A DNA stretch of 20,453 bases from a virus (taxonomy: Duplodnaviria; Heunggongvirae; Uroviricota; Caudoviricetes). The notes under the pieces are model-generated. The model was given only the letters and a program-made list of their open reading frames with translations. It did no database searches and had not been told where the DNA came from. The stretch's first letter is position 1; the number at the start of each line of letters is the position of its first letter. Below, piece after piece: positions 864 through 20,277 of the stretch. The translations under genes were made by a program, and so were the position numbers. The stretch lies in IMG/VR virus record IMGVR_UViG_2695420718_000008; one strand, 5' to 3'.

Positions 864-920
864 AAAAGGGCGGCAGAGCAGTCACGGAGTAAAACTGATA
901 CCGCCAAATGTCACCAGAAA
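864..920 (-). ncRNA. dicF: DicF small RNA (ftsZ-targeting sRNA processed from the dicB operon transcript)
   Basis: Reverse complement of 864-920 reads TTTCTGGTGACATTTGGCGGTATCAGTTTTACTCCGTGACTGCTCTGCCGCCCTTTT, matching the remembered DicF sequence including the GGCGG/CCGCC stem and 3' U-run; sits between ydfC and dicB as in Qin. Ends are approximate. Confidence 0.7.
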
Positions 921-3549: not shown

Positions 3550-3958
3550 GCACATCCGCATGGCGATGAATGCCTGGGCGCATCCGGACGGTGAAAAAGT
3601 TCCGGCAGCTGAAATAACCCGGGCTTATTTTGAGCTTGGTATGACGTTCCCGGAATTATATGACGACAGCCATCCGGAAGCCCTGGCTCGCAATACCCAG
3701 AAAATTTTCCGCTGGGTGGAGAAAGACACTCCTGATGCGGTTAAAAAAATTCAGGCGTTGTTACCAGCGATCGAAAAAGCAATGCCGCCTCTGCTGGTGG
3801 CCCGAATGCGCAGCCACAGTTCAGCTTATTTTCGGGAGCTGGTGGAGACGCGGGAACGACTGGTGAGAGACGCTGATGATTTTGTCGCAGTGGCGATCGC
3901 TGGTTTCAACCAGATGAATCGTGGTGGCCCTGCAGGAAATATTGTGGCTGTGCATTGA
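3533..3958 (+). CDS. YdaT-like prophage protein (cII position)
   Basis: 141-aa product MKIRHEHIRMAMNAWAHPDGEKVPAAEITRAYFELGMTFPE... resembles my recollection of Rac YdaT; GGAG 7 nt upstream; overlaps the end of the cro-like gene. Confidence 0.55.
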   Translation: MKIRHEHIRMAMNAWAHPDGEKVPAAEITRAYFELGMTFPELYDDSHPEALARNTQKIFRWVEKDTPDAVKKIQALLPAIEKAMPPLLVARMRSHSSAYFRELVETRERLVRDADDFVAVAIAGFNQMNRGGPAGNIVAVH

Positions 3959-7609: not shown

Positions 7610-7739
7610 TTTTATGGATCACCTTTCTGATTGATTTCATATTGGCGAGGTGACGTGAGTTAAGTAGAATGGCTGCGGGTGCTTGAGGCTATCTGTCTCA
7701 GGCATGAACACTGAAAGGCAGATAGAGAAAAGCCCCAGT

Positions 7740-7810
7740 TAACATTTCGCGTCCTGCAAGACGCTTAACATTAATCTGAGGCCCAATCTATGTCTCACAA
7801 ATGTAGGTTA
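7740..7810 (-). ncRNA. predicted Sok-like antisense RNA of the hok locus (position inferred, not sequence-verified)
   Basis: hok-family loci encode an antisense RNA complementary to the leader around the mok start; a minus-strand TTGCCT-N17-TAACCT candidate promoter lies at about 7847-7819. Boundaries are guesses. Confidence 0.25.
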
Positions 7811-7846
7811 GCCTCTTACGTGCCGAAAGGCAAGGGGAAGCAGGCT

Positions 7847-8002
7847 ATGAAGCAGCAAAAGGCGATGTTAATCGCCCTGATCGTCATCTGTTTAACCGTC
7901 ATTGTGACGGCACTGGTAACGAGGAAAGACCTCTGCGAGGTACGAATCCGAACCGGCCAGACGGAGGTCGCTGTCTTCACAGCTTACGAACCTGAGGAGT
8001 AA
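7847..8002 (+). CDS. hokD: Hok/Gef-family type I toxin (HokD/RelF-like)
   Basis: 51-aa product MKQQKAMLIALIVICLTVIVTALVTRKDLCEVRIRTGQTEVAVFTAYEPEE matches remembered HokD; an in-frame upstream ATG at 7790 (MSHKCRLASYVPKGKGKQA) is mok-like; the leader 7676-7790 resembles the hok mRNA 5' end (GCTTGAGGCT...). Confidence 0.85.
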   Translation: MKQQKAMLIALIVICLTVIVTALVTRKDLCEVRIRTGQTEVAVFTAYEPEE

Positions 8003-10566: not shown

Positions 10567-11613
10567 GTGCGGGTATTACTTCGACCTGTTCTGGTACCGG
10601 AACTCGGGCTGGTGATCGTTAAGCCGGGCCGTGAATCCATGCCGGTATTCCACAATACCCGGGTACTGGTGGAGCCGGAACCGAAAAGCATGCGTAATCT
10701 GCCGTCCGGGGTCGTTCCTGCCGTTCGCCAGCCGCTGGCGGAGGATAAATCATTACTGCCATTTTTCAGCGACGAACGAGTGATTCGTGCTGCTGGTGGC
10801 GCTGGCGCATTGTCTGATTGGTTACTGCGCCATGTTAAATCCTGCCAGTGGCCACACGGCGATTATCACCACAGTGAAACCGTCATTCACCGTTATGGTA
10901 CCGGCGCAATGGTGTTGTGCTGGCACTGCGACAACCAGCTGCGCGACCAGACCTCCGAATCACTCGGGCAACTTGCTCACCAAAACCTGTCTGCATGGAT
11001 GATTGACGTCATACGCCATGCAATGAATGGCTCGCAGGAACGGGAATTATCGCTGGCTGAATTATCCTGGTGGGCGGTCCGCAATCAGGTGGCGGACGCG
11101 CTACCGGAAGCGGTATTACGTCGTTCGCTGGGGTTGCGTGCGGAAAAAATCCGCTCAATGTACCGTGAAAGCGACATCGTACCGGGAGAGCAGACCGCCA
11201 CCAGCATACTGAAGCAGCGCACAAAAAATCTTGCGCCGCTGCCTCACGCCCACCAGCAAAACCCGCCACAGGAAGAGACGGTGGTCAGCATTGCCGTTGA
11301 TCCTGAGTCTCCGGAATCTTTCATGAAACGACCTAAACGTCGCCGCTGGGTTAACGAGAAATACACACGCTGGGTGAAGACACAGCCGTGTGCGTGTTGT
11401 GGTAAGCCAGCCGACGATCCCCATCACCTGATTGGTCATGGTCAGGGCGGAATGGGGACAAAATCTCACGATATTTTCACGCTACCGCTGTGTCGGGAGC
11501 ATCACAACGAGCTTCATGCGGATCCTCTGGCGTTCGAAGAAAAGCATGGTTCTCAGGTTGATTTAATTTTTCGTTTTCTTGATCACGCCTTTGCAACTGG
11601 CGTGCTTGGGTAA
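10567..11613 (+). CDS. DUF968 (YdfU-like) prophage protein with C-terminal HNH-like Cys/His motif
   Basis: 348-aa product; C-terminus CACCGKPADDPHHLIGHG...LPLCREHHNELH; GTG start at 10567 with GGAGG upstream; size and position match ydfU next to hokD in Qin. Confidence 0.65.
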   Translation: MRVLLRPVLVPELGLVIVKPGRESMPVFHNTRVLVEPEPKSMRNLPSGVVPAVRQPLAEDKSLLPFFSDERVIRAAGGAGALSDWLLRHVKSCQWPHGDYHHSETVIHRYGTGAMVLCWHCDNQLRDQTSESLGQLAHQNLSAWMIDVIRHAMNGSQERELSLAELSWWAVRNQVADALPEAVLRRSLGLRAEKIRSMYRESDIVPGEQTATSILKQRTKNLAPLPHAHQQNPPQEETVVSIAVDPESPESFMKRPKRRRWVNEKYTRWVKTQPCACCGKPADDPHHLIGHGQGGMGTKSHDIFTLPLCREHHNELHADPLAFEEKHGSQVDLIFRFLDHAFATGVLG

Positions 11614-11625
11614 AAGAGGTGACTG

Positions 11626-12000
11626 ATGCTCATAGATTTGGTTTTACCTTACCCGCCGACGGTGAACACTTACTGGCGACGCCGTGGCAGCACATATTTT
11701 ATCTCGGAGGAGGGAAAGCGTTATCGCCGGGCTGTGGCGCTTATTGTTCGCCAGCAGCGGCTGAAATTAAGCCTGTCCGGAAGGTTGGCAATAAAAATTA
11801 TTGCAGAACCACCGGATAAGCGCCGCCGTGACCTGGACAATATTCTGAAAGCGCCGCTGGATGCGCTGACGCATGCGGGGTTGCTAATGGACGATGAGCA
11901 GTTTGATGAAATCAATATCGTTCGTGGTCAGCCAGTATCTGGTGGACGTATGGGGGTGAAGATTTACCCCATAATGCATGAAGAGCAGGTCAAAAAATGA
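11626..12000 (+). CDS. rusA: Holliday junction resolvase RusA
   Basis: 124-aa product with the DKRRRDLDNILKAPLDALTHAGLLMDDEQ motif, matching the RusA catalytic region (DRRRRDLDN in E. coli RusA); lies immediately before Q. Confidence 0.8.
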   Translation: MLIDLVLPYPPTVNTYWRRRGSTYFISEEGKRYRRAVALIVRQQRLKLSLSGRLAIKIIAEPPDKRRRDLDNILKAPLDALTHAGLLMDDEQFDEINIVRGQPVSGGRMGVKIYPIMHEEQVKK

Positions 12001-12818
12001 AACTGGAAGATTTACCGAAATACTACTCCCCAAAATCCCCTGGCCTGACCGATGTATCGGCCTCAACGTCAAAAGATGCGCTGAGTATCACTGATGTGAT
12101 GGCCGCGCAGGGCATGACACAGAATCGGGCTGAGATGGGGTTTTCTGCGTTCCTGGGGAAAATGGGCATCAGTATGAATGACAGGGCGCGGGCAACAGAA
12201 TTACTGGCAGATTATGCACTCAGTCGGTGCGATCGTGTGGCGGCGTTGAGAAAACTTCCGGCAGAAATAAAACCGGTAGTGATGCGCATTATGGCTTCGT
12301 ATGCGTTTGAAGATTATGCCCGTAGCGCGGCGAGCAAAAAACAGTGCCCCTGCTGTCACGGAAAAAAATTTATTGAAAGCGAGGTTTTTACAAACAAGAT
12401 CCAGTATCCGGATGGTAAGCCACCAGTGTGGGCAAAGTGCACAAAAGGCGTGTATCCGTCTTACTGGGAAGAATGGAAAAAAGTCAGGGAGGTGGTAAAA
12501 GTTGCCTGTCCGGAGTGTGGCGGAAAGGGTGAGGTTTCCACCGCCTGTAAGGATTGCCGTGGGCGTGGTGTCGCCATTCATCGTGAAGAGTCGGTAAAAC
12601 GTGGTATGCCTGTTATCAGAGATTGCCAGCGTTGTGGTGGTCGTGGCTGTGAAAGGCTGCCATCAACGGAGGCATTTAATGCCATATGCAAAGTGACGAG
12701 TGCTATCACGCTTGATACGTGGAAAAAATCAGTGAAACGCTTTTACGATACGTTGGTGGTTCGGTTTGACATTGAAGAGGCATGGGCGGAGCGGCAGTTA
12801 AAGAGGGTAACGCGATAG
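11997..12818 (+). CDS. late antiterminator Q-like protein (Cys-rich zinc-binding)
   Basis: 273 aa; multiple CxxC motifs (CPCCHG, CPECGG, CKDCRG, CQRCGG); start coupled to the rusA stop (ATGA); followed by a promoter and terminator pair as for pR'/tR'. Confidence 0.65.
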   Translation: MKLEDLPKYYSPKSPGLTDVSASTSKDALSITDVMAAQGMTQNRAEMGFSAFLGKMGISMNDRARATELLADYALSRCDRVAALRKLPAEIKPVVMRIMASYAFEDYARSAASKKQCPCCHGKKFIESEVFTNKIQYPDGKPPVWAKCTKGVYPSYWEEWKKVREVVKVACPECGGKGEVSTACKDCRGRGVAIHREESVKRGMPVIRDCQRCGGRGCERLPSTEAFNAICKVTSAITLDTWKKSVKRFYDTLVVRFDIEEAWAERQLKRVTR

Positions 12819-12924: not shown

Positions 12925-13045
12925 GACTGAAATCGCGTCAGTACAGTAAACGCGCTGGTGGCGGTGAATACCTGTCTTTCAGCTTGCTGGCTTTTTCGAC
13001 AAGAGTTATTGGTGTGTCACGTTAACCGGAAAAGGGAAAAAGACA

Positions 13046-13242
13046 TGCTAAAACAGCAGGATATGACAGAAACCGCCAGAGTGGTGTTTAATGAATTAAG
13101 CGTTACCGAACCGGCGACAGTCGGGGAGATAGCGCAGAATACTTACCTTTCACGCGAACGCTGCCAGTTAATACTGACCCAGCTGGTTATGGCGGGTCTG
13201 GCAGACTATCAGTTCGGTTGTTACAGACGCCTTCCGCAGTGA
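13046..13242 (+). CDS. hypothetical small protein (65 aa), possibly winged-helix
   Basis: ATG at 13046 with AAGGGA upstream; product MLKQQDMTETARVVFNELSVTEPATVGEIAQNTYLSRERCQLILTQLVMAGLADYQFGCYRRLPQ; the track ORF starts further upstream at 12958. Confidence 0.4.
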
Positions 13243-13392: not shown

Positions 13393-14442
13393 ATGCTTAA
13401 TACTGTAAAAATATCCAGTTGTGAGTTAATCAACGCCGACTGCCTGGAATTTATCCGGTCGTTACCCGAAAATTCTGTTGACCTGATAGTCACGGACCCG
13501 CCGTACTTTAAAGTGAAGCCTGAGGGCTGGGATAACCAGTGGAAGGGCGACGATGATTACCTGAAGTGGCTGGACCAGTGTCTGGCGCAGTTCTGGCGGG
13601 TGCTGAAACCTGCCGGAAGTCTTTACCTGTTCTGTGGTCATCGCCTGGCATCTGATATCGAAATCATGATGCGTGAACGCTTCAGTGTGCTGAACCATAT
13701 TATCTGGGCGAAGCCGTCCGGACGCTGGAACGGATGCAACAAGGAAAGCCTGCGGGCGTATTTCCCCGCCACAGAGCGCATTCTGTTCGCGGAACATTAT
13801 CAGGGGCCGTATCGTCCGAAAGATGCCGGGTATGCGGCGAAGGGCAGTGCACTGAAACAGCATGTGATGGCCCCGCTGATTTCTTACTTTCGTGATGCGC
13901 GCGCGGCCCTGGGGATAACGGCAAAACAGATTGCAGATGCCACAGGAAAGAAAAACATGGTGTCGCACTGGTTCAGTGCCAGTCAGTGGCAGCTACCGAA
14001 TGAAAGCGATTATCTGAAATTACAGGCGCTGTTTGCCCGGGTGGCAGAAGAGAAGCATCGGCGTGGTGAACTGGAAAAGCTCCACCACCAGCTGGTGGAT
14101 ACGTATACCTCACTGAACCGGCAGTATGCGGAGCTGCTGAGTGAATATAAACATCTGCGGCGGTATTTTGGCGTGACGGTGCAGGTGCCGTATACCGATG
14201 TGTGGACGCATAAACCGGTGCAGTTCTATCCCGGGAAACATCCGTGCGAAAAACCGGCAGAAATGCTGCAGCAGATAATCAGCGCAAGCAGTCGTCCGGG
14301 TGACCTGGTTGCAGATTTTTTCATGGGGTCGGGTTCAACGGTAAAAGCGGCGATGGCACTGGGGCGTCGTGCGATTGGCGTTGAACTGGAGACCGGACGT
14401 TTTGAGCAGACAGTCAGGGAAGTTCAGGATTTAATCGTTTGA
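13393..14442 (+). CDS. orphan DNA methyltransferase (N6-adenine/N4-cytosine class, DPPY motif)
   Basis: 349 aa; IVTDPPYF (catalytic motif IV) near the N-terminus and FFMGSGST (AdoMet motif I) near the C-terminus, a beta-class order; no adjacent restriction endonuclease candidate. Confidence 0.8.
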   Translation: MLNTVKISSCELINADCLEFIRSLPENSVDLIVTDPPYFKVKPEGWDNQWKGDDDYLKWLDQCLAQFWRVLKPAGSLYLFCGHRLASDIEIMMRERFSVLNHIIWAKPSGRWNGCNKESLRAYFPATERILFAEHYQGPYRPKDAGYAAKGSALKQHVMAPLISYFRDARAALGITAKQIADATGKKNMVSHWFSASQWQLPNESDYLKLQALFARVAEEKHRRGELEKLHHQLVDTYTSLNRQYAELLSEYKHLRRYFGVTVQVPYTDVWTHKPVQFYPGKHPCEKPAEMLQQIISASSRPGDLVADFFMGSGSTVKAAMALGRRAIGVELETGRFEQTVREVQDLIV

Positions 14443-14491
14443 AACGGATGAGATTGCAGAATTAATTACGCACCATTATTATTCTGCTTCC

Positions 14492-14567
14492 GGCCCTTTA
14501 GCTCAGTGGTGAGAGCGAGCGACTCATAATCGCCAGGTCGCTGGTTCAAATCCAGCAAGGGCCACCA
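14492..14567 (+). tRNA. tRNA with CAU anticodon (Met or lysidine-dependent Ile2; ileZ-like position)
   Basis: Hand-folded cloverleaf: acceptor GGCCCTT/AAGGGCC, T-arm GCTGG-TTCAAAT-CCAGC, anticodon loop CTCATAA, encoded CCA 3' end. Confidence 0.8.
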
Positions 14568-14667
14568 TCACAAACCGCCATTAGCTTATCAGGAAGAGCA
14601 GACGACACGATAACAGGGTTGTTGGTGCGGGGGCGGGTCCCCGATGGCGGTCCATTATCGGTATTCA

Positions 14668-14744
14668 GCGTTGTTAGCTCAGCCGGACAGAGCAATTGCC
14701 TTCTAAGCAATCCGTCACTGGTTCGAATCCAGTACAGCGCGCCA
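14668..14744 (+). tRNA. tRNA-Arg (anticodon UCU)
   Basis: Hand-folded cloverleaf: acceptor GCGTTGT/ACAGCGC (one G-U pair), anticodon stem ATTGC/GCAAT with loop CTTCTAA, T-arm ACTGG-TTCGAAT-CCAGT, encoded CCA. Confidence 0.8.
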
Positions 14745-14881
14745 TATTCATTCTTCCAGATTCCTTTCGGCAGAGCCTTATACTGAAATATACCTGGCTC
14801 AGGATATTGTTGAAAATATTATATGTTTGTCAAAAATAAAAGTTCTGTTAAGTGTTGATTGAGTGTTTGTTATACGGTCTA

Positions 14882-15208
14882 ATGGTTTTTTCAGCATTAA
14901 ATATTTATCATTCATATGGTGTGGGTAGAGTGAATATTGATGAGGCGTCGGGGTGTTTCATCCTTAGGCAGCGTATTGATATAGTCAATGCAGAACGAGC
15001 AAAGGCCTTCAGCCGTTTGACAGTTTTGTTCTGTACTCCTGATCGTCTTTCGGGAAGAGACGTTATTATTCTGAATAGTGATGCTATACAGAGGGTTTGC
15101 GATGAGTTCATGGTGGCTAATTCAGAATTATTTGCTCTTGTTCAGGAGTACAACAGAATAGCCAGGACCTGTGGTATGGATGAACTTCGGATTACTCATC
15201 TGGGGTAG
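14882..15208 (+). CDS. hypothetical protein (about 108 aa) at the stx-equivalent cargo position
   Basis: Track ORF 14852..15208 with an internal ATG at 14882; product MVFSALNIYHSYGVGRVNIDEASGCFILRQRIDIVNAERAKAF...; AT-rich; no clear SD. Confidence 0.3.
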   Translation: MVFSALNIYHSYGVGRVNIDEASGCFILRQRIDIVNAERAKAFSRLTVLFCTPDRLSGRDVIILNSDAIQRVCDEFMVANSELFALVQEYNRIARTCGMDELRITHLG

Positions 15209-15655
15209 ATACATATCTGGATTATCACCGGTTACGGTAAAAAGTGATTGCTTACTGTTTTTGTGAATGGCATTGCAGCAGCCGGATAATGTCAGTGCTG
15301 GCTGACGGTGTGCTGGTGGCGGGTGTGGTGGTTGCTGCTTTCCCGTTGCTGAAAAAGAAAACGCCAGACTGTTAGCCGGGTATCAGTTAGCGGGAGAAAT
15401 TTTTAAATACTTCACAATTCAGGCGGTTGACTGTTGTCTGGTTTGCGGGGAGTTTGTTAAAAGAAACTGGCATGGTGAATCCCCCTGTGCGGAGGGGCAA
15501 TCAGCGAGTAGGTATATGGGATAATCGCGGATTCAGGTGCTGGTACTGAATTCACCGGGAGGCACCCGGCACCATGCAATGGCACATAGCGCCACTCTCC
15601 AGCCCCTCTCCGGAGGGGCTGTTTATATTGATTTTGTCAGATGTGAGTAAACTCC

Positions 15656-15991
15656 TTATGGACTTTGTTGTTTTAGCCCATAAGGACATATTTGCAGAGT
15701 GCAACGGTTATTAAAGCATTCATTCAATACGTTATCTGTATTTGTAGGGCATTCCTGGCTGTTTTTGATTAAATTCCAGAATGTTTTATTGAATGGTACT
15801 ACGTTGTAAATGGTTACAGGCAGCACTTTGTTATTGAGCATGATGCCTGTGTGAGTCAGTGTAAATATACTTTCAGGAGGTAAGAAAGCATCCGATTGAT
15901 ACCAGATTATTAATTTTATTTTACTCCATATGACTGAAAAAGATATTCCGCATGATGGCTGGATAACTGTATCAATCACAATCCACTTCAT
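15656..15991 (-). CDS. hypothetical protein (111 aa), very AT-rich, reverse-oriented cargo gene
   Basis: Track ORF; AAGGA about 8 nt upstream of the ATG on the minus strand; product [32 protein letters not shown]...; composition is atypical, so it could be non-coding AT-rich DNA. Confidence 0.3.
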
Positions 15992-16251
15992 TTAGTTTCC
16001 TTGTTTATGCCTTGCTGGTGATGTTCTGAAAAGTATAAATGATATTTTTGATTGTAAACCATAGAGCAGAATTATTTTTCTGATGTTGTTTATTGTTTAT
16101 TTAAATGCAGGGTGGTTTATATCTCGTCTTGTAGTTTATCCATGCATATCTGCTTGATGATGAGGTTTTTAATTAAGGTATGGTTTTGTGTTTTTTCTGT
16201 ATTACATGTCAGGTATTTTAAAGAATCATTTTTCAGATGGTGGAAAGAACC

Positions 16252-18108
16252 ATGGCATTTAAACACTATGATGTTGTCAGGGCGGCGTCGCCGTCAGATC
16301 TTGCGGAAAAGCTGACACATAAACTGAAAGAGGGCTGGCAGCCGTTTGGTAGTCCGGTGGCCATAACCCCTTATACCCTGATGCAGGCGATTGCAGCAGA
16401 AGGTGATGTGGTCGTCAGTGGTGCAACTGAGCCGGAGTGGTACTACGTCATCGTACTGGCCGGGCAATCCAATGCCATGGCTTACGGTGAAGGGCTTCCG
16501 CTTCCGGATTCTTACGATGCGCCCCACCCACGCATTAAGCAACTGGCCCGTCGCAACACAGTGACTCCCGGTGGTAAAGCATGCGCATTTAACGACATCA
16601 TTCCGGCAGACCACTGCCTGCATGATGTTCAGGATATGAGCGCACTGAATCATCCGAAGGCAGACCTGAGCAAAGGGCAGTACGGCTGTGTCGGCCAGGG
16701 CTTACATATTGCCAAAAAACTGCTTCCGTATATCCCGAATAACGCGGGGATCCTGCTGGTACCATGCTGTCGTGGTGGTTCGGCATTCACCCAGGGCGCG
16801 GAGGGGACATTCAGTGCGGACACGGGGGCCAGCCAGGATTCGGCACGCTGGGGTGTGGGTAAACCGTTATATCAGGACCTGATCGCACGCACCAAAGCGG
16901 CATTACAGAAGAACCCGAAAAATGTGTTGCTGGCGGTGTGCTGGATGCAGGGCGAATTTGACATGAGCGCTGCCACCTACGCACAGCAACCGGACCTGTT
17001 CACGGCCATGCTGAAGCAGTTCCGTACTGACCTTTCCGGATTTAACGCGCAGTGCCATGGCGGCAGTGCTGCAGTTGTACCGTGGATTTGTGGCGACACG
17101 ACGTATTACTGGAAAAACACATACGGCACACAGTATGACTCCGTCTACGGCGCGTACAAAAACAGGGAGAGCGACAACGTTTTCTTTGTGCCGTTCATGA
17201 CCGACGGTAACGGCAACAACACGCCCACCAACTTACCGGCAGAAGACCCGGATATTGCTGATGCAGGTTATTACGGCGCGCAATCCCGTAGTAATGGTAA
17301 TTGGGTATCGTCAAATCGTCCGACACATTTCAGTTCATGGGCGCGCAGGGGCATTATTTCGGATCGCCTGGCAACCGCTATTCTGAACGCAGTTGGTCGA
17401 ACCAGCGCCTTCATCAGCGGTACCGCACCGGAGATTAAACCCTCGCCCGGCGGCGACACGCCATCGGGGCCGTCTGATGGTGACACATCCGTTCGTACAG
17501 TCTCCCTGCTGCCGACAGCCGGAGAGGCTGCTGCGCAGGGCTGGACCATCACCGGCGGCAGTGTTGCGCTGGAAGATGGTGTGTTTAAGGTTGCCAAGCA
17601 GAGCAATAAAACCTGGTCCCTGATGCATCCGGTGGATGACGCGGTCTCCCTGCTGACACGGGGTGGCAGACTGAGCTGTAAGTTTCGACTGTCAGGCGCA
17701 CTGACCAACAACCAGTTCGGTCTGGGAATTTATCTGTATACCGATGTAGCGTTACCTGACGTCGTGGCGATGACCGGGACTGGTAACCCGTTCCTGATGT
17801 CGTTCTTCACCCAGACCACAGACGGCAAACTGAATCTGATGCATCACAAGAAAGCCGGAAACACAAAGTTGGGCGAGTTCGGGAATTACAGTAACGACTG
17901 GCAGACGCTGGAGCTGGTGTTCACCGCCGGCAGTGCCACGGTTACTCCGAAACTGAATGGAGTGGCTGGCCCGGCATTCCAGGTCATAAAAGACAGTCTG
18001 ACACTGGGGCTGAATGCGCTGACGCTGACGGATATTACCAAAAATGCAGCGTATGGCGTTGAGATAGAAAGTCTGGTGCTGGAGATAAATGCACCGGCAT
18101 CATCATAA
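16252..18108 (+). CDS. NanS-p-like sialate O-acetylesterase (SGNH/DUF303 hydrolase with C-terminal extension)
   Basis: About 618 aa; motif VIVLAGQSNAMAYGEG typical of YjhS/NanS-type SGNH esterases; Gly/Thr-rich C-terminal domain; sits between the cargo locus and the holin, as in Stx phages. ATG 16252 has a better SD than 16237. Confidence 0.65.
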   Translation: MAFKHYDVVRAASPSDLAEKLTHKLKEGWQPFGSPVAITPYTLMQAIAAEGDVVVSGATEPEWYYVIVLAGQSNAMAYGEGLPLPDSYDAPHPRIKQLARRNTVTPGGKACAFNDIIPADHCLHDVQDMSALNHPKADLSKGQYGCVGQGLHIAKKLLPYIPNNAGILLVPCCRGGSAFTQGAEGTFSADTGASQDSARWGVGKPLYQDLIARTKAALQKNPKNVLLAVCWMQGEFDMSAATYAQQPDLFTAMLKQFRTDLSGFNAQCHGGSAAVVPWICGDTTYYWKNTYGTQYDSVYGAYKNRESDNVFFVPFMTDGNGNNTPTNLPAEDPDIADAGYYGAQSRSNGNWVSSNRPTHFSSWARRGIISDRLATAILNAVGRTSAFISGTAPEIKPSPGGDTPSGPSDGDTSVRTVSLLPTAGEAAAQGWTITGGSVALEDGVFKVAKQSNKTWSLMHPVDDAVSLLTRGGRLSCKFRLSGALTNNQFGLGIYLYTDVALPDVVAMTGTGNPFLMSFFTQTTDGKLNLMHHKKAGNTKLGEFGNYSNDWQTLELVFTAGSATVTPKLNGVAGPAFQVIKDSLTLGLNALTLTDITKNAAYGVEIESLVLEINAPASS

Positions 18109-18264
18109 AAAGTGAGCCAGTCAAATGGAAGGTATCGTTAAACTCACCGGTAGTGTCAGTGGGTCGTCTGAGATGCCTGCATGAGTTATCAGAGCCATCA
18201 GTACTTAACTGGTGGCTTTTTTATTTTTTATTGTTGTCAGCTTCCGGATAACGGGAGACGGGGT

Positions 18265-18480
18265 ATGTACCAGATGGAAAAAATCACAACAGGTGTGTCA
18301 TACACCACGTCAGCGGTGGGAACGGGCTACTGGTTCCTGCAGTTGCTGGACAGGGTTTCCCCGTCTCAGTGGGCGGCAATAGGCGTGCTGGGGAGTCTGC
18401 TGTTTGGGCTGCTGACATATCTGACTAACCTGTATTTCAAAATCAGAGAGGACCGTCGTAAGGCTGCACGGGGAGAGTAA
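18265..18480 (+). CDS. class II holin, phage 21 S-like (pinholin) with dual-start motif
   Basis: 71-aa product [71 protein letters not shown] closely matches remembered S21; Met1/Met4 dual start; GGGAG upstream. Confidence 0.85.
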
Positions 18481-19743: not shown

Positions 19744-20277
19744 ATGAACACCAAAATCAAATATGGCCTGTCGGCTGCCGTTCTGGCGTTGATTGCCATC
19801 GGTGCGCCTGCGCCTGATATTCTCGACCAGTTTCTGGATGAAAAAGAAGGTAACCACACAACGGCATACCGTGATGGTGCGGGTATCTGGACCATCTGCC
19901 GCGGTGCCACAATGGTGGATGGTAAACCTGTTATTCCGGGCATGAAACTGTCGAAGGAAAAATGCGACCAGGTTAATGCCATTGAACGGGATAAGGCGCT
20001 GGCATGGGTGGAGCGCAATATTAAAGTTCCACTGACCGAACCACAGAAAGCGGGTATAGCGTCATTCTGTCCCTATAACATTGGCCCCGGTAAGTGTTTC
20101 CCGTCGACGTTTTATAAGCGGCTGAATGCTGGTGACCGCAGGGGAGCGTGTGAGGCGATTCGCTGGTGGATTAAGGACGGTGGCAGAGACTGCCGTATTC
20201 GTTCAAACAACTGCTACGGTCAGGTATCCCGTCGTGACCAGGAGAGCGCGCTGGCGTGCTGGGGTATCGACAGATAA
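19744..20277 (+). CDS. SAR endolysin (T4-lysozyme-like muramidase with N-terminal signal-anchor-release domain)
   Basis: 177 aa; hydrophobic Gly/Ala-rich N-terminus YGLSAAVLALIAIGAPAP; catalytic E-x8-D-x5-T triad in EGNHTTAYRDGAGIWT; partners with the pinholin. Confidence 0.85.
   Translation: MNTKIKYGLSAAVLALIAIGAPAPDILDQFLDEKEGNHTTAYRDGAGIWTICRGATMVDGKPVIPGMKLSKEKCDQVNAIERDKALAWVERNIKVPLTEPQKAGIASFCPYNIGPGKCFPSTFYKRLNAGDRRGACEAIRWWIKDGGRDCRIRSNNCYGQVSRRDQESALACWGIDR

Follow-up and report, generated by a model that had tools for sequence, protein, structure and literature searches.

Mostly known prophage cargo at the stxAB position of a probable lambdoid E. coli prophage: iraL, an STnc100-type small RNA gene and two short open reading frames

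The window analysed here, the whole 20,453-nucleotide stretch of DNA, has the prophage order Q, DNA methyltransferase, tRNA(CAU), tRNA-Arg(UCU), cargo, SASA/NanS-p-like esterase, holin and lysozyme. This is the layout that had been recognized from the sequence by its likeness to Stx-converting phages, and every feature described was found at its stated position. The features are as follows.

11997-12818, Q (PF03589, 273 aa)
13393-14442, DNA methylase (PF01555)
14492-14567, plus strand, tRNA with anticodon CAU, ileZ-type (ARAGORN; Rfam, 72.5 bits)
14575-14654 (approximate), plus strand, middle tRNA-Arg (argN in 933W), reduced to a degenerate remnant (alignment with O104:H4 and 933W)
14668-14744, plus strand, tRNA-Arg (UCU), argO-type (ARAGORN, Rfam)
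14745-14929, plus strand, AT-rich leader upstream of ORF92 (GC 0.31), opening the true stx-equivalent slot
14930-15208, plus strand, ORF92, 92 aa from its most likely start (phrog_2873; function unknown; UniProt A0A0A0FS28 is the 108-aa form)
15244-15375, plus strand, DUF3927 ('TciB-like') small protein, 43 aa, GTG start (PF13064; phrog_1470; RefSeq WP_001438304.1)
15434-15463, plus strand, candidate STnc100 promoter: -35 TTGTCT (15434-15439), extended -10 TGnTAAAAG (hexamer 15458-15463), predicted start G15470
15441-15630, plus strand, STnc100 sRNA (Rfam RF02076)
15656-15991, minus strand, iraL, gene for an RssB anti-adaptor of 111 aa (IraM/IraL/RssC family, NF007393)
15992-16058, minus strand, iraL 5' UTR and sigma-70 promoter: TSS 16024, -10 TATACT (16037-16032), -35-like hexamer TTTACA (16058-16053)
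16059-16236, no strand, AT-rich divergent region between iraL and the esterase (GC about 0.29), containing upstream regulatory sequence of iraL as far as -100 (PMC4045071 methods)
16237-18108, plus strand, NanS-p-like SASA carbohydrate esterase (Pfam DUF1737+SASA+DUF6645), the downstream limit of the cargo
18265-18480, P21-type holin
19744-20277, lysozyme

Neither ARAGORN nor Rfam called a tRNA at 14575-14654, where the alignment with O104:H4 and 933W showed that the ends of the acceptor stem are retained and the interior is scrambled. The steep GC swings of the original prediction were reproduced: GC content is 0.31 in 14745-14929, 0.44 in the forward ORF, 0.55 in the hairpin segment, 0.35 in the reverse ORF and 0.29 in 15992-16236. 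A database search of the 1.5-kb cargo segment, which the prediction had proposed as a check, recovered 100% identical copies in many E. coli genomes, with at least 80% of the segment present in 863 of 5,426 genomes and 815 records at 99% identity or more. As had also been claimed, the slot carries no AB5 toxin genes: none of the ORFs in 14745-16236 matched a Stx or AB5 family in Pfam or NCBIfam, and an AB5 or other toxin as its content was rejected on this ground.

The slot had further been described as holding unknown content. This is correct for the forward ORF, to which no function can be assigned, and incorrect for the reverse ORF, which is iraL, and for the hairpins, which belong to STnc100; the DUF3927 gene had been overlooked. 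With NF007393, whose cutoff is 121 bits, the IraL protein scored 162 bits, its residues 1-110 covering positions 1-113 of the 114 in the model, which places it in this family; it also matched IraM in the PDB (8twd) with an E-value of 9e-32. The DNA of the reverse ORF is 100% identical to that of O104:H4, whose CDS is WP_000871291.1. This same protein is encoded by an IraM-annotated gene in the potB prophage of CFT073, where iraL is located (Hryckowian et al. 2014, mBio, PMC4045071), and the sequence also bears the name IRAM_ECO27. The genes iraL and iraM have been reported to form two separate classes with conservation of 95% or more inside each (PMC4045071), and the reverse ORF belongs with iraL and not with iraM, as judged by its identity to the CFT073 protein, by its distance from K-12 iraM and by the match of its mRNA 5' end. 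The K-12 protein IraM (YcgW), an RssB anti-adaptor induced by Mg2+ starvation, belongs to the same family and shares 62% amino-acid identity with IraL over 107 residues. The two proteins target RssB alike, with IraL being active in log phase and contacting RssB differently from IraM (PMC4045071). The two genes share 71% nucleotide identity, BLAST found nothing alike beyond the coding region, and K-12 iraM sits beside e14, a genomic context unlike that of iraL.

The 5'-RACE sequence of the iraL mRNA (PMC4045071) agrees in 31 of its 32 bases with window positions 16024-15993 on the minus strand. The -35/-10 spacing of the promoter, as read, is a suboptimal 15 nt. IraL has been characterized in CFT073 as an anti-adaptor for RssB with a stabilizing effect on RpoS (PMC4045071); for the window, its function and transcription start are shown through identity to these experimentally studied CFT073 sequences. 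The protein would bind the adaptor RssB and block delivery of RpoS to ClpXP, leading to higher RpoS in growing cells. Because the gene has a sigma-70 promoter of its own, its expression in the lysogen would be independent of Q and of late transcription. Window positions 14453-16471 are 97% identical to CFT073, whose iraL module shares the order tRNAs, DUF3927, STnc100 and iraL, the protein WP_000871291.1 and the mRNA 5' end. The two loci differ in that truncation has left only the DUF1737 part of the esterase in CFT073 and the esterase of the window is full-length, Q is followed by an IS200 in CFT073 and by the DNA methylase in the window, and the three tRNAs are intact in CFT073, whereas the middle one is degenerate here.

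The STnc100 gene scored 132.4 bits over the entire Rfam model (positions 1-206 of 206), for which the gathering score is 47. It accounts for the two similar hairpins that had been noticed, the second followed by a T-run. In the MFE fold, CCCCU/AGGGG at 15482-15497 forms an internal stem-loop of STnc100, and the terminator scan, in agreement with the MFE fold, found at 15600-15621 a stem of 9 bp, 7 of them G-C pairs, followed by TTTATATT. This second hairpin is the intrinsic terminator of STnc100. At the other end, TTGnCT and T(G/A)TTAAAA motifs recur in all seven of the diverged STnc100/PasD2 copies that were aligned, and the 5' end of PasD2 estimated by RNA-seq (NC_011601 741157; PMC8550237 Table S6) aligns with 15470. 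From these conserved motifs and the aligned PasD2 end we infer the candidate promoter and the 5' end; STnc100 appears to own a promoter, the RNA probably spans about 15470 to about 15628, and the Rfam model probably opens with ~29 positions of promoter DNA rather than RNA. PGAP/RefSeq calls a minus-strand pseudogene across STnc100 in O104:H4 and CFT073, and this call is probably spurious.

Several relatives of this RNA have been studied. EcOnc27/sRNA103 of EHEC, which overlaps STnc100, is reported to bind Hfq, and its overexpression reportedly altered fimZ and espA transcript levels (PMC12711010), and PasD of EPEC (PasD1/PasD2) shows Hfq-dependent stability and many RIL-seq partners (PMC8550237). 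The window copy resembles them in its place directly upstream of a NanS-p-type esterase, in the 5' block GCAUGGUGAAUCC and in ending with an intrinsic terminator, and published OMV qPCR primers match the window variant exactly at 15471-15490 and 15544-15563. In E2348/69 PP2 the STnc100-type sRNA follows the DUF3927 gene as in the window, in the order DUF3927, PasD2/STnc100 and esterase. By analogy with these relatives, the window copy may be a discrete, Hfq-bound, base-pairing RNA. Its targets are probably different, because the unpaired stretch ahead of the terminator is not alike and inspection of the sequences showed no PasD seed UGUGAG. Identity with PasD1/PasD2 was rejected, the 5' block being common to both and the PasD probe/seed region being absent; PasD2 itself falls short of the Rfam gathering score for STnc100. 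PasA/PasC was also sought between esterase and holin and rejected, as the PasA probe found no match at up to 3 mismatches and Rfam gave no credible match there.

Comparison of the window with stx-positive phages (933W and Shigella phage 75/02) and with CFT073, E2348/69, mEp460_ev081 and 640R1, in line with the proposed check against relatives, located the cargo with respect to the toxin genes. Phage 933W has its stx2AB flanked by the tRNA block and esterase that flank the cargo here, confirming that the slot is the equivalent of the stx position, and the 933W backbone order is the same as in the window: Q, tRNAs, cargo, STnc100, a short second slot, esterase, holin and lysozyme. BLAST found no counterpart of 933W stx2AB in the window, and no slot ORF matched a toxin family. 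The esterase shares 69-86% nucleotide identity with those of 933W, 75/02 and E2348/69, and between the STnc100 copies of the window and 933W identity is about 71%. The window differs from the Stx phages in having a Q of another type (PF03589) and a methylase between Q and the tRNAs. Since STnc100 directly follows stx2B in 933W and stx1B in 75/02 (see also PMC12711010), it is backbone and not a toxin replacement, and the true stx-equivalent slot is 14745-15411 only. The view that the whole segment stands instead of toxin genes thus holds for this first slot, which replaces stxAB, and not for STnc100. Slot 1 carries stxAB in Stx phages and ORF92 with DUF3927 here; slot 2 carries AsxR in 933W, AgvB in 75/02 and iraL here. 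The Rfam names of AsxR and AgvB are 'anti stx2 sRNA' and 'anti GcvB sRNA', and Tree et al. describe AsxR as an anti-sRNA. An AsxR/AgvB-like anti-sRNA was rejected for the window, as Rfam gave no such match up to E = 1 within 14400-16400, though both RNAs occupy the equivalent place in Stx phages. As a side observation, slot-2 cargo in the phages examined acts on global host regulators, AsxR and AgvB in the Stx phages and IraL, through RssB/RpoS, here.

Related phages also bear on the independent acquisition of pieces that had been suggested from the GC swings. Phage mEp460_ev081 shares window positions 14453-15578 and 640R1 shares 15412-16471; both mosaic breakpoints, at 15578 and 15412, lie within STnc100 and support this suggestion. 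Together with the two STnc100 copies that flank extra cargo in L003 and L007, the strong terminator at the end of STnc100 and a fold whose stability exceeds that of shuffles only moderately (z = -2.26), they also favour a mainly cis role, in which STnc100 would serve as terminator or insulator of the slot-1 unit and as a homology patch for cargo swaps rather than as a trans regulator. We consider this reading possible but doubtful, as against it stand the Hfq association and abundance of EcOnc27/sRNA103 and PasD1/2, the PasD partners and EcOnc27 effects cited above (PMC12711010, PMC8550237) and the promoter-like pattern recurring upstream in the aligned copies. Cis and trans roles of STnc100 are compatible with each other.

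The forward ORF had been predicted as a 108-aa gene at 14882-15208. It is a real gene, with a start that most likely lies further downstream. The ORF list opens the frame ending at 15208 at GTG 14852, with ATG 14882 in the same frame, and we favour GTG 14930 because frame-breaking indels occur upstream of it between relatives and distant homologs begin at the aligned position; on the same evidence the starts at ATG 14882 (108 aa) and GTG 14852 (118 aa) were rejected. The dN/dS of ORF92 is 0.20-0.27 against homologs of 60-64% identity (36-40% amino-acid divergence), with indels absent and third-position changes in excess, and resembles the value of 0.17 for iraL against iraM. The ORFs therefore pass the proposed coding-potential check, by dN/dS, and do not behave as a non-coding leader; comparison with homologs indicates that ORF92 is a coding gene under purifying selection. 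The frame matches phrog_2873 with an E-value of 1.2e-70 over positions 1-108 of 108, and homologs were found in E. coli, Shigella, Citrobacter and Salmonella. AF2 predicts an antiparallel two-helix hairpin (pLDDT 88.5). Despite this confident model, a function from structure was rejected, since the structure search returned generic coiled-coil hairpins alone (e.g. prefoldin, BAR domains; E at least 0.098 in PDB and at least 0.22 in BFVD); the sequence search of the PDB gave nothing below E 0.48. Three repeat-rich 'homologs' from the representative search (P0026, P0034 and P0036) were judged spurious, being repetitive sequences that matched a short query stretch many times. Conserved ORF92 recurs in Enterobacteriaceae prophages and plasmids, frequently adjoining genes for AraC-like regulators or TerB-like/DUF3927 genes.

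The DUF3927 protein matched PF13064 with 92.7 bits against a gathering score of 25 (E 1.3e-26), and its translation has a hydrophobic segment followed by KKK. It resembles its family in this strong profile match, in its small size and hydrophobic segment and in its prophage late-region location. Relatives have 50-52 aa, and the window copy, at 43 aa, is shorter at the N-terminus, aligning with positions 7-53 of the Pfam model, and may be a remnant in decay. In relatives a TerB-like gene precedes and overlaps DUF3927; one prophage of Citrobacter and one of E. coli have an ORF92 homolog, then a TerB-like gene (faint Pfam match), then DUF3927. Because relatives have this gene in between and it is missing here, ORF92 and DUF3927 look like leftovers of an ORF92-TerB-like-DUF3927 cassette. 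Such an arrangement, at a moron-typical position, raises the question of whether the pair is what remains of a 'Tci'-type phage-exclusion or stress module that protects the lysogen against other phages or colicins, in which case slot 1 would be a locus for defence. The label of phrog_1470, 'TciB-like inhibition of cell division or resistance to colicin', points the same way, as an annotation rather than an experimental result. We regard this reading as quite improbable: the TerB-like gene is missing here, ORF92 homologs sit alone on plasmids beside fimbrial operons and often adjoin an AraC-like regulator instead, and PADLOC gave nothing for ORF92, DUF3927 or IraL. The sole PADLOC match was the upstream methylase, and the cargo as a defence system was rejected on this ground.

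The missing TerB-like gene and the degenerate middle tRNA could also be taken as signs of non-functional filler, that is, decaying late-leader sequence whose ORFs arose by chance or are dead remnants, as could the absence of ORF92 from PGAP/RefSeq annotation in the two genomes checked (O104:H4 and CFT073) and the pseudogene called across STnc100. This is highly improbable in view of the dN/dS of ORF92 across such divergence without indels, the experimentally demonstrated function of the identical IraL protein and the matching mRNA 5' end, the full-length and high-scoring STnc100, and the wide presence of the segment among genomes.

Taken together, the region very probably belongs to an E. coli prophage of the lambdoid (Qin/potB-type) kind and forms the variable 'moron' part of its late operon, where Stx phages have stxAB, with two slots around a conserved sRNA gene. 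Slot 1 (14745-15411) would comprise ORF92 and the DUF3927 small protein; STnc100 (about 15470-15628) would be the anchor between the slots, its terminator closing slot 1; and slot 2 (15631-16236) would hold iraL on the opposite strand, under its own sigma-70 promoter. ORF92 and DUF3927 would be expressed in the lysogen, and upon induction Q-modified polymerase would read through the STnc100 terminator. The iraL gene has the properties of a moron, namely its own mapped TSS, a GC content of 0.35 against 0.55 in the flanking esterase and variable presence among phages. For ORF92/DUF3927 there is the STnc100 terminator downstream and, upstream, just a weak sigma-70-like match, TTGAAA-16-AAAAAT at 14810-14837 in the AT-rich leader. 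As promoter-like matches in the region show no excess (6 against 4.8 expected in shuffles), this match is weak evidence for an ORF92 promoter.

A broader proposal, which we think unlikely, is that ORF92 is an unrecognized lysogenic-conversion protein and that STnc100 is a fixed anchor between two swap slots; if true, the stx neighbourhood would be a general site for rewiring host regulation, beyond a toxin site. The slot content as a whole is mostly known, catalogued prophage cargo and not a new kind of element, and our results leave the understanding of IraL, STnc100 and stx-locus systems as it was. They show that the toxin position of a stx-negative relative of Stx phages is occupied by IraL, a regulator of the general stress response, together with an sRNA whose family is Hfq-associated, which bears on how such prophages may change host physiology without toxins. 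They also bring corrections to annotation: ORF92 is a real gene omitted by RefSeq in the genomes checked, and the STnc100 'pseudogene' and the ~29 model positions are probably misassigned. A minor point of naming concerns the tRNA with anticodon CAU, which is Met according to ARAGORN and Ile according to RefSeq and the 933W record.

The window covers the early-right and late region of a lambdoid prophage of E. coli. Its annotation with Pfam, ARAGORN and Rfam agrees with the layout recognized in the original prediction, which had placed a cargo segment between the tRNA genes and a NanS-p-like esterase, at the position occupied by stxAB in Stx-converting phages. The features around this segment are the following:

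868-919, minus strand: DicF sRNA (Rfam, 77 bits)
7677-7852: hok/sok type I toxin-antitoxin locus (Rfam; sok 120.5 bits)
10567-11613: DUF968 (Pfam)
11626-12000: RusA (Pfam)
11997-12818: antiterminator Q (Pfam)
12958-13242: 94-aa ORF between Q and the methylase (phrog_331 match; weak winged-helix-like Pfam matches)
13393-14442: DNA methylase (Pfam)
14492-14567: tRNA(CAU) (ARAGORN)
14668-14744: tRNA-Arg(UCU) (ARAGORN)
16237-18108: esterase (DUF1737, SASA and DUF6645; Pfam)
18265-18480: P21-type holin, downstream of the esterase
Downstream of the esterase: DUF1327 protein
19744-20277: lysozyme, downstream of the esterase

DicF and hok/sok in the early region mark the prophage as Qin/Rac-like, and the 94-aa ORF occupies the expected place of the late promoter and terminator region.

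Within the slot, the two hairpins, the two ORFs and the GC swings are present where they had been described, and none of the slot ORFs matches a toxin family in Pfam or NCBIfam. The content, first regarded as unknown, is for the most part already known: database searches returned iraL, a characterized gene, the catalogued families STnc100 and DUF3927, and a phrog_2873 protein (ORF92), which is also catalogued, as a protein of no assigned function. Many complete E. coli genomes contain the segment 14745-16240 at 100% identity, and 863 of 5,426 genomes have at least 80% of it. The full 20-kb window as such is absent from this collection (best match, 87% coverage and 97% identity).

The analogy with the stx locus is borne out by BLAST against phage 933W, in which the tRNA block (14341-14752, 85%), STnc100 (15412-15578, 71%) and the beginning of the esterase gene (16251 onwards) align, while all the sequence between these blocks differs. 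ORF92 and DUF3927 occupy the true stx-equivalent slot (14745-15411), and iraL occupies a second slot (15631-16236). In place of iraL, the second slot contains AsxR in 933W (L005, 5485-5537, minus strand) and AgvB in Shigella phage 75/02 (L006, 4166-4225, minus strand), both of them anti-sRNAs lying directly past the STnc100 3' end.

The two hairpins are parts of one sRNA gene, STnc100 (RF02076), matched by Rfam over the full model at 15441-15630 (132.4 bits; gathering score 47): the first (15482-15497) is an internal stem-loop, and the second (15600-15621) with its T-run is the intrinsic terminator. STnc100 follows stx2B in 933W (L005, 5278-5483, about 75 nt past the stxB stop) and stx1B in Shigella phage 75/02. 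It overlaps the EHEC Hfq-binding sRNA EcOnc27/sRNA103 (Paganini et al., PMC12711010) and is related to the EPEC sRNAs PasD1 and PasD2 (2026 preprint 10.64898/2026.05.13.724894). In E2348/69, PasD2 sits between a DUF3927 gene and the esterase, and RNA-seq gives an estimated 5' end at the G of GCATGGTG, the counterpart of window position 15470 in the alignment. In all seven diverged STnc100/PasD2 copies aligned, TTGnCT is separated by 17-18 nt from T(G/A)TTAAAA, which precedes that G by about 7 nt (window 15434-15470). Since this promoter-like pair precedes GCATGGTG in every copy compared, positions 1 to ~29 of the Rfam model may be promoter DNA rather than RNA; from the alignment we infer that STnc100 has a promoter of its own and yields an RNA of ~158 nt (15470 to ~15628). 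The window copy was also considered as PasD, and this assignment was rejected, the PasD probe and seed region being absent by inspection.

The proposal that the pieces were acquired separately is supported by two phages. mEp460_ev081 shares 14453-15578 with the window and diverges thereafter; vB_EcoS-640R1 shares 15412-16471, differs upstream and carries a second STnc100 copy. Both breakpoints fall inside STnc100, which suggests that this gene serves as a recombination anchor. Among related phages and contigs, some have two copies, at 3561-3754 and 4030-4218 in L003 and at 1344-1556 and 4650-4839 in L007; these pairs bracket additional cargo (for example an AraC-like regulator, an IS3-family element and an ORF92 homolog), consistent with such a role.

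The reverse ORF (15656-15991) is iraL. Its product (111 aa) reaches 162 bits against NCBIfam NF007393 (cutoff 121), shares 62% identity with K-12 IraM, matches the solved IraM chain 8twd (E 9e-32) and is identical to a sequence named IRAM_ECO27 in UniRef. IraL was described in CFT073, encoded on the potB island, where it is 58.9% identical to IraM, binds RssB and stabilizes RpoS in log phase (Hryckowian et al., PMC4045071). The CFT073 potB prophage holds WP_000871291.1, the accession of the window's iraL product, in the same context (tRNAs, DUF3927, then iraL on the minus strand), and the two loci are 97% identical over 14453-16471. The iraL mRNA 5'-RACE sequence agrees at 31 of 32 bases with the minus strand of the window (16024 to 15993), and TATACT lies at -13 to -8 relative to the start (16024). 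Given this match and the identity with CFT073, the reverse ORF, together with some of the AT-rich intergenic sequence, corresponds to a characterized gene with a mapped promoter.

The forward ORF, originally called as 108 aa (14882-15208), has no Pfam, NCBIfam or PADLOC match and matches phrog_2873 over its full length. Judged on its pattern of substitution it is a real gene, although shorter than first proposed. In the family alignment, every homolog begins at the counterpart of GTG 14930, and frame-breaking indels separate relatives upstream of it; the gene is thus most likely 14930-15208 (92 aa). Homologs down to ~33% identity occur in E. coli, Shigella, Citrobacter and Salmonella. Comparison with those sharing 60-64% identity revealed no indels, an excess of third-position changes (43, versus 24 at the first and 22 at the second position) and a dN/dS of 0.20-0.27, versus 0.86-1.2 in the other two frames and 0.17 for iraL against iraM. 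AlphaFold2 confidently models two long antiparallel helices (pLDDT 88.5), for which fold and sequence searches gave generic coiled-coil matches only. An AraC-like HTH_18 gene (~241 aa) often lies directly upstream of the homologs (L007-L010, L016, L021-L023), a pairing that may point to function; some homologs are plasmid-borne, beside a PapB/K88-like fimbrial operon. Downstream, a 43-aa DUF3927 protein (15244-15375; E 1e-26; phrog_1470, 'TciB-like') had been overlooked. A Citrobacter and an E. coli prophage carry a TerB-like gene and DUF3927 after the ORF92 homolog; the TerB-like gene is absent from the window, where ~99 nt (15184-15282) stand against ~700 nt in the relative L016.

For this segment of O104:H4 2011C-3493, RefSeq lists a 'DUF3927 family protein', a pseudogene on the minus strand and, under WP_000871291.1, an 'anti-adapter protein IraM'. 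PGAP leaves ORF92, a gene under purifying selection, unannotated in the otherwise identical loci of O104:H4 2011C-3493 and CFT073, which is likely a systematic annotation gap. The pseudogene, a partial 'hypothetical protein' at ~15460-15585 (minus strand), recurs in O104:H4, CFT073 and E2348/69; it overlaps STnc100 almost entirely in antisense and is probably an erroneous call that has spread by homology.

In the lysogen, iraL would be transcribed from its own sigma-70 promoter and IraL would sequester RssB, allowing RpoS to escape ClpXP, as demonstrated in CFT073 for the identical gene and inferred for the window. EcOnc27 and PasD serve as models for STnc100, which probably is transcribed from a promoter of its own and works together with Hfq. 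Expression of ORF92 and DUF3927 may start in the AT-rich leader, for which the promoter evidence is weak. Late read-through by Q-modified RNA polymerase is established lambdoid biology; upon induction, such polymerase should start at the late promoter, pass through the tRNAs, the first slot and the STnc100 terminator, and go on to transcribe the esterase and lysis genes.

A strong terminator-like hairpin lies at ~18185-18228 (AGCCAtCAG...CTGGTGGCT, then a T-run), in the interval that separates the esterase stop from the start of the holin gene (18109-18264). The sRNAs PasA/PasC (EcOnc51/52) occupy this gap in EPEC/EHEC; in the window, the sequence does not match the PasA probe with up to 3 mismatches allowed and Rfam gave no credible match, and the hairpin may be a distinct sRNA or merely the esterase terminator. 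In the ileZ-argN-argO block, the middle tRNA (~14575-14654) is a degenerate remnant with its acceptor-stem ends kept and its interior scrambled, and no tRNA is called there. Phage mEp460_ev081, 98.6% identical over this stretch, likewise has two tRNAs only.
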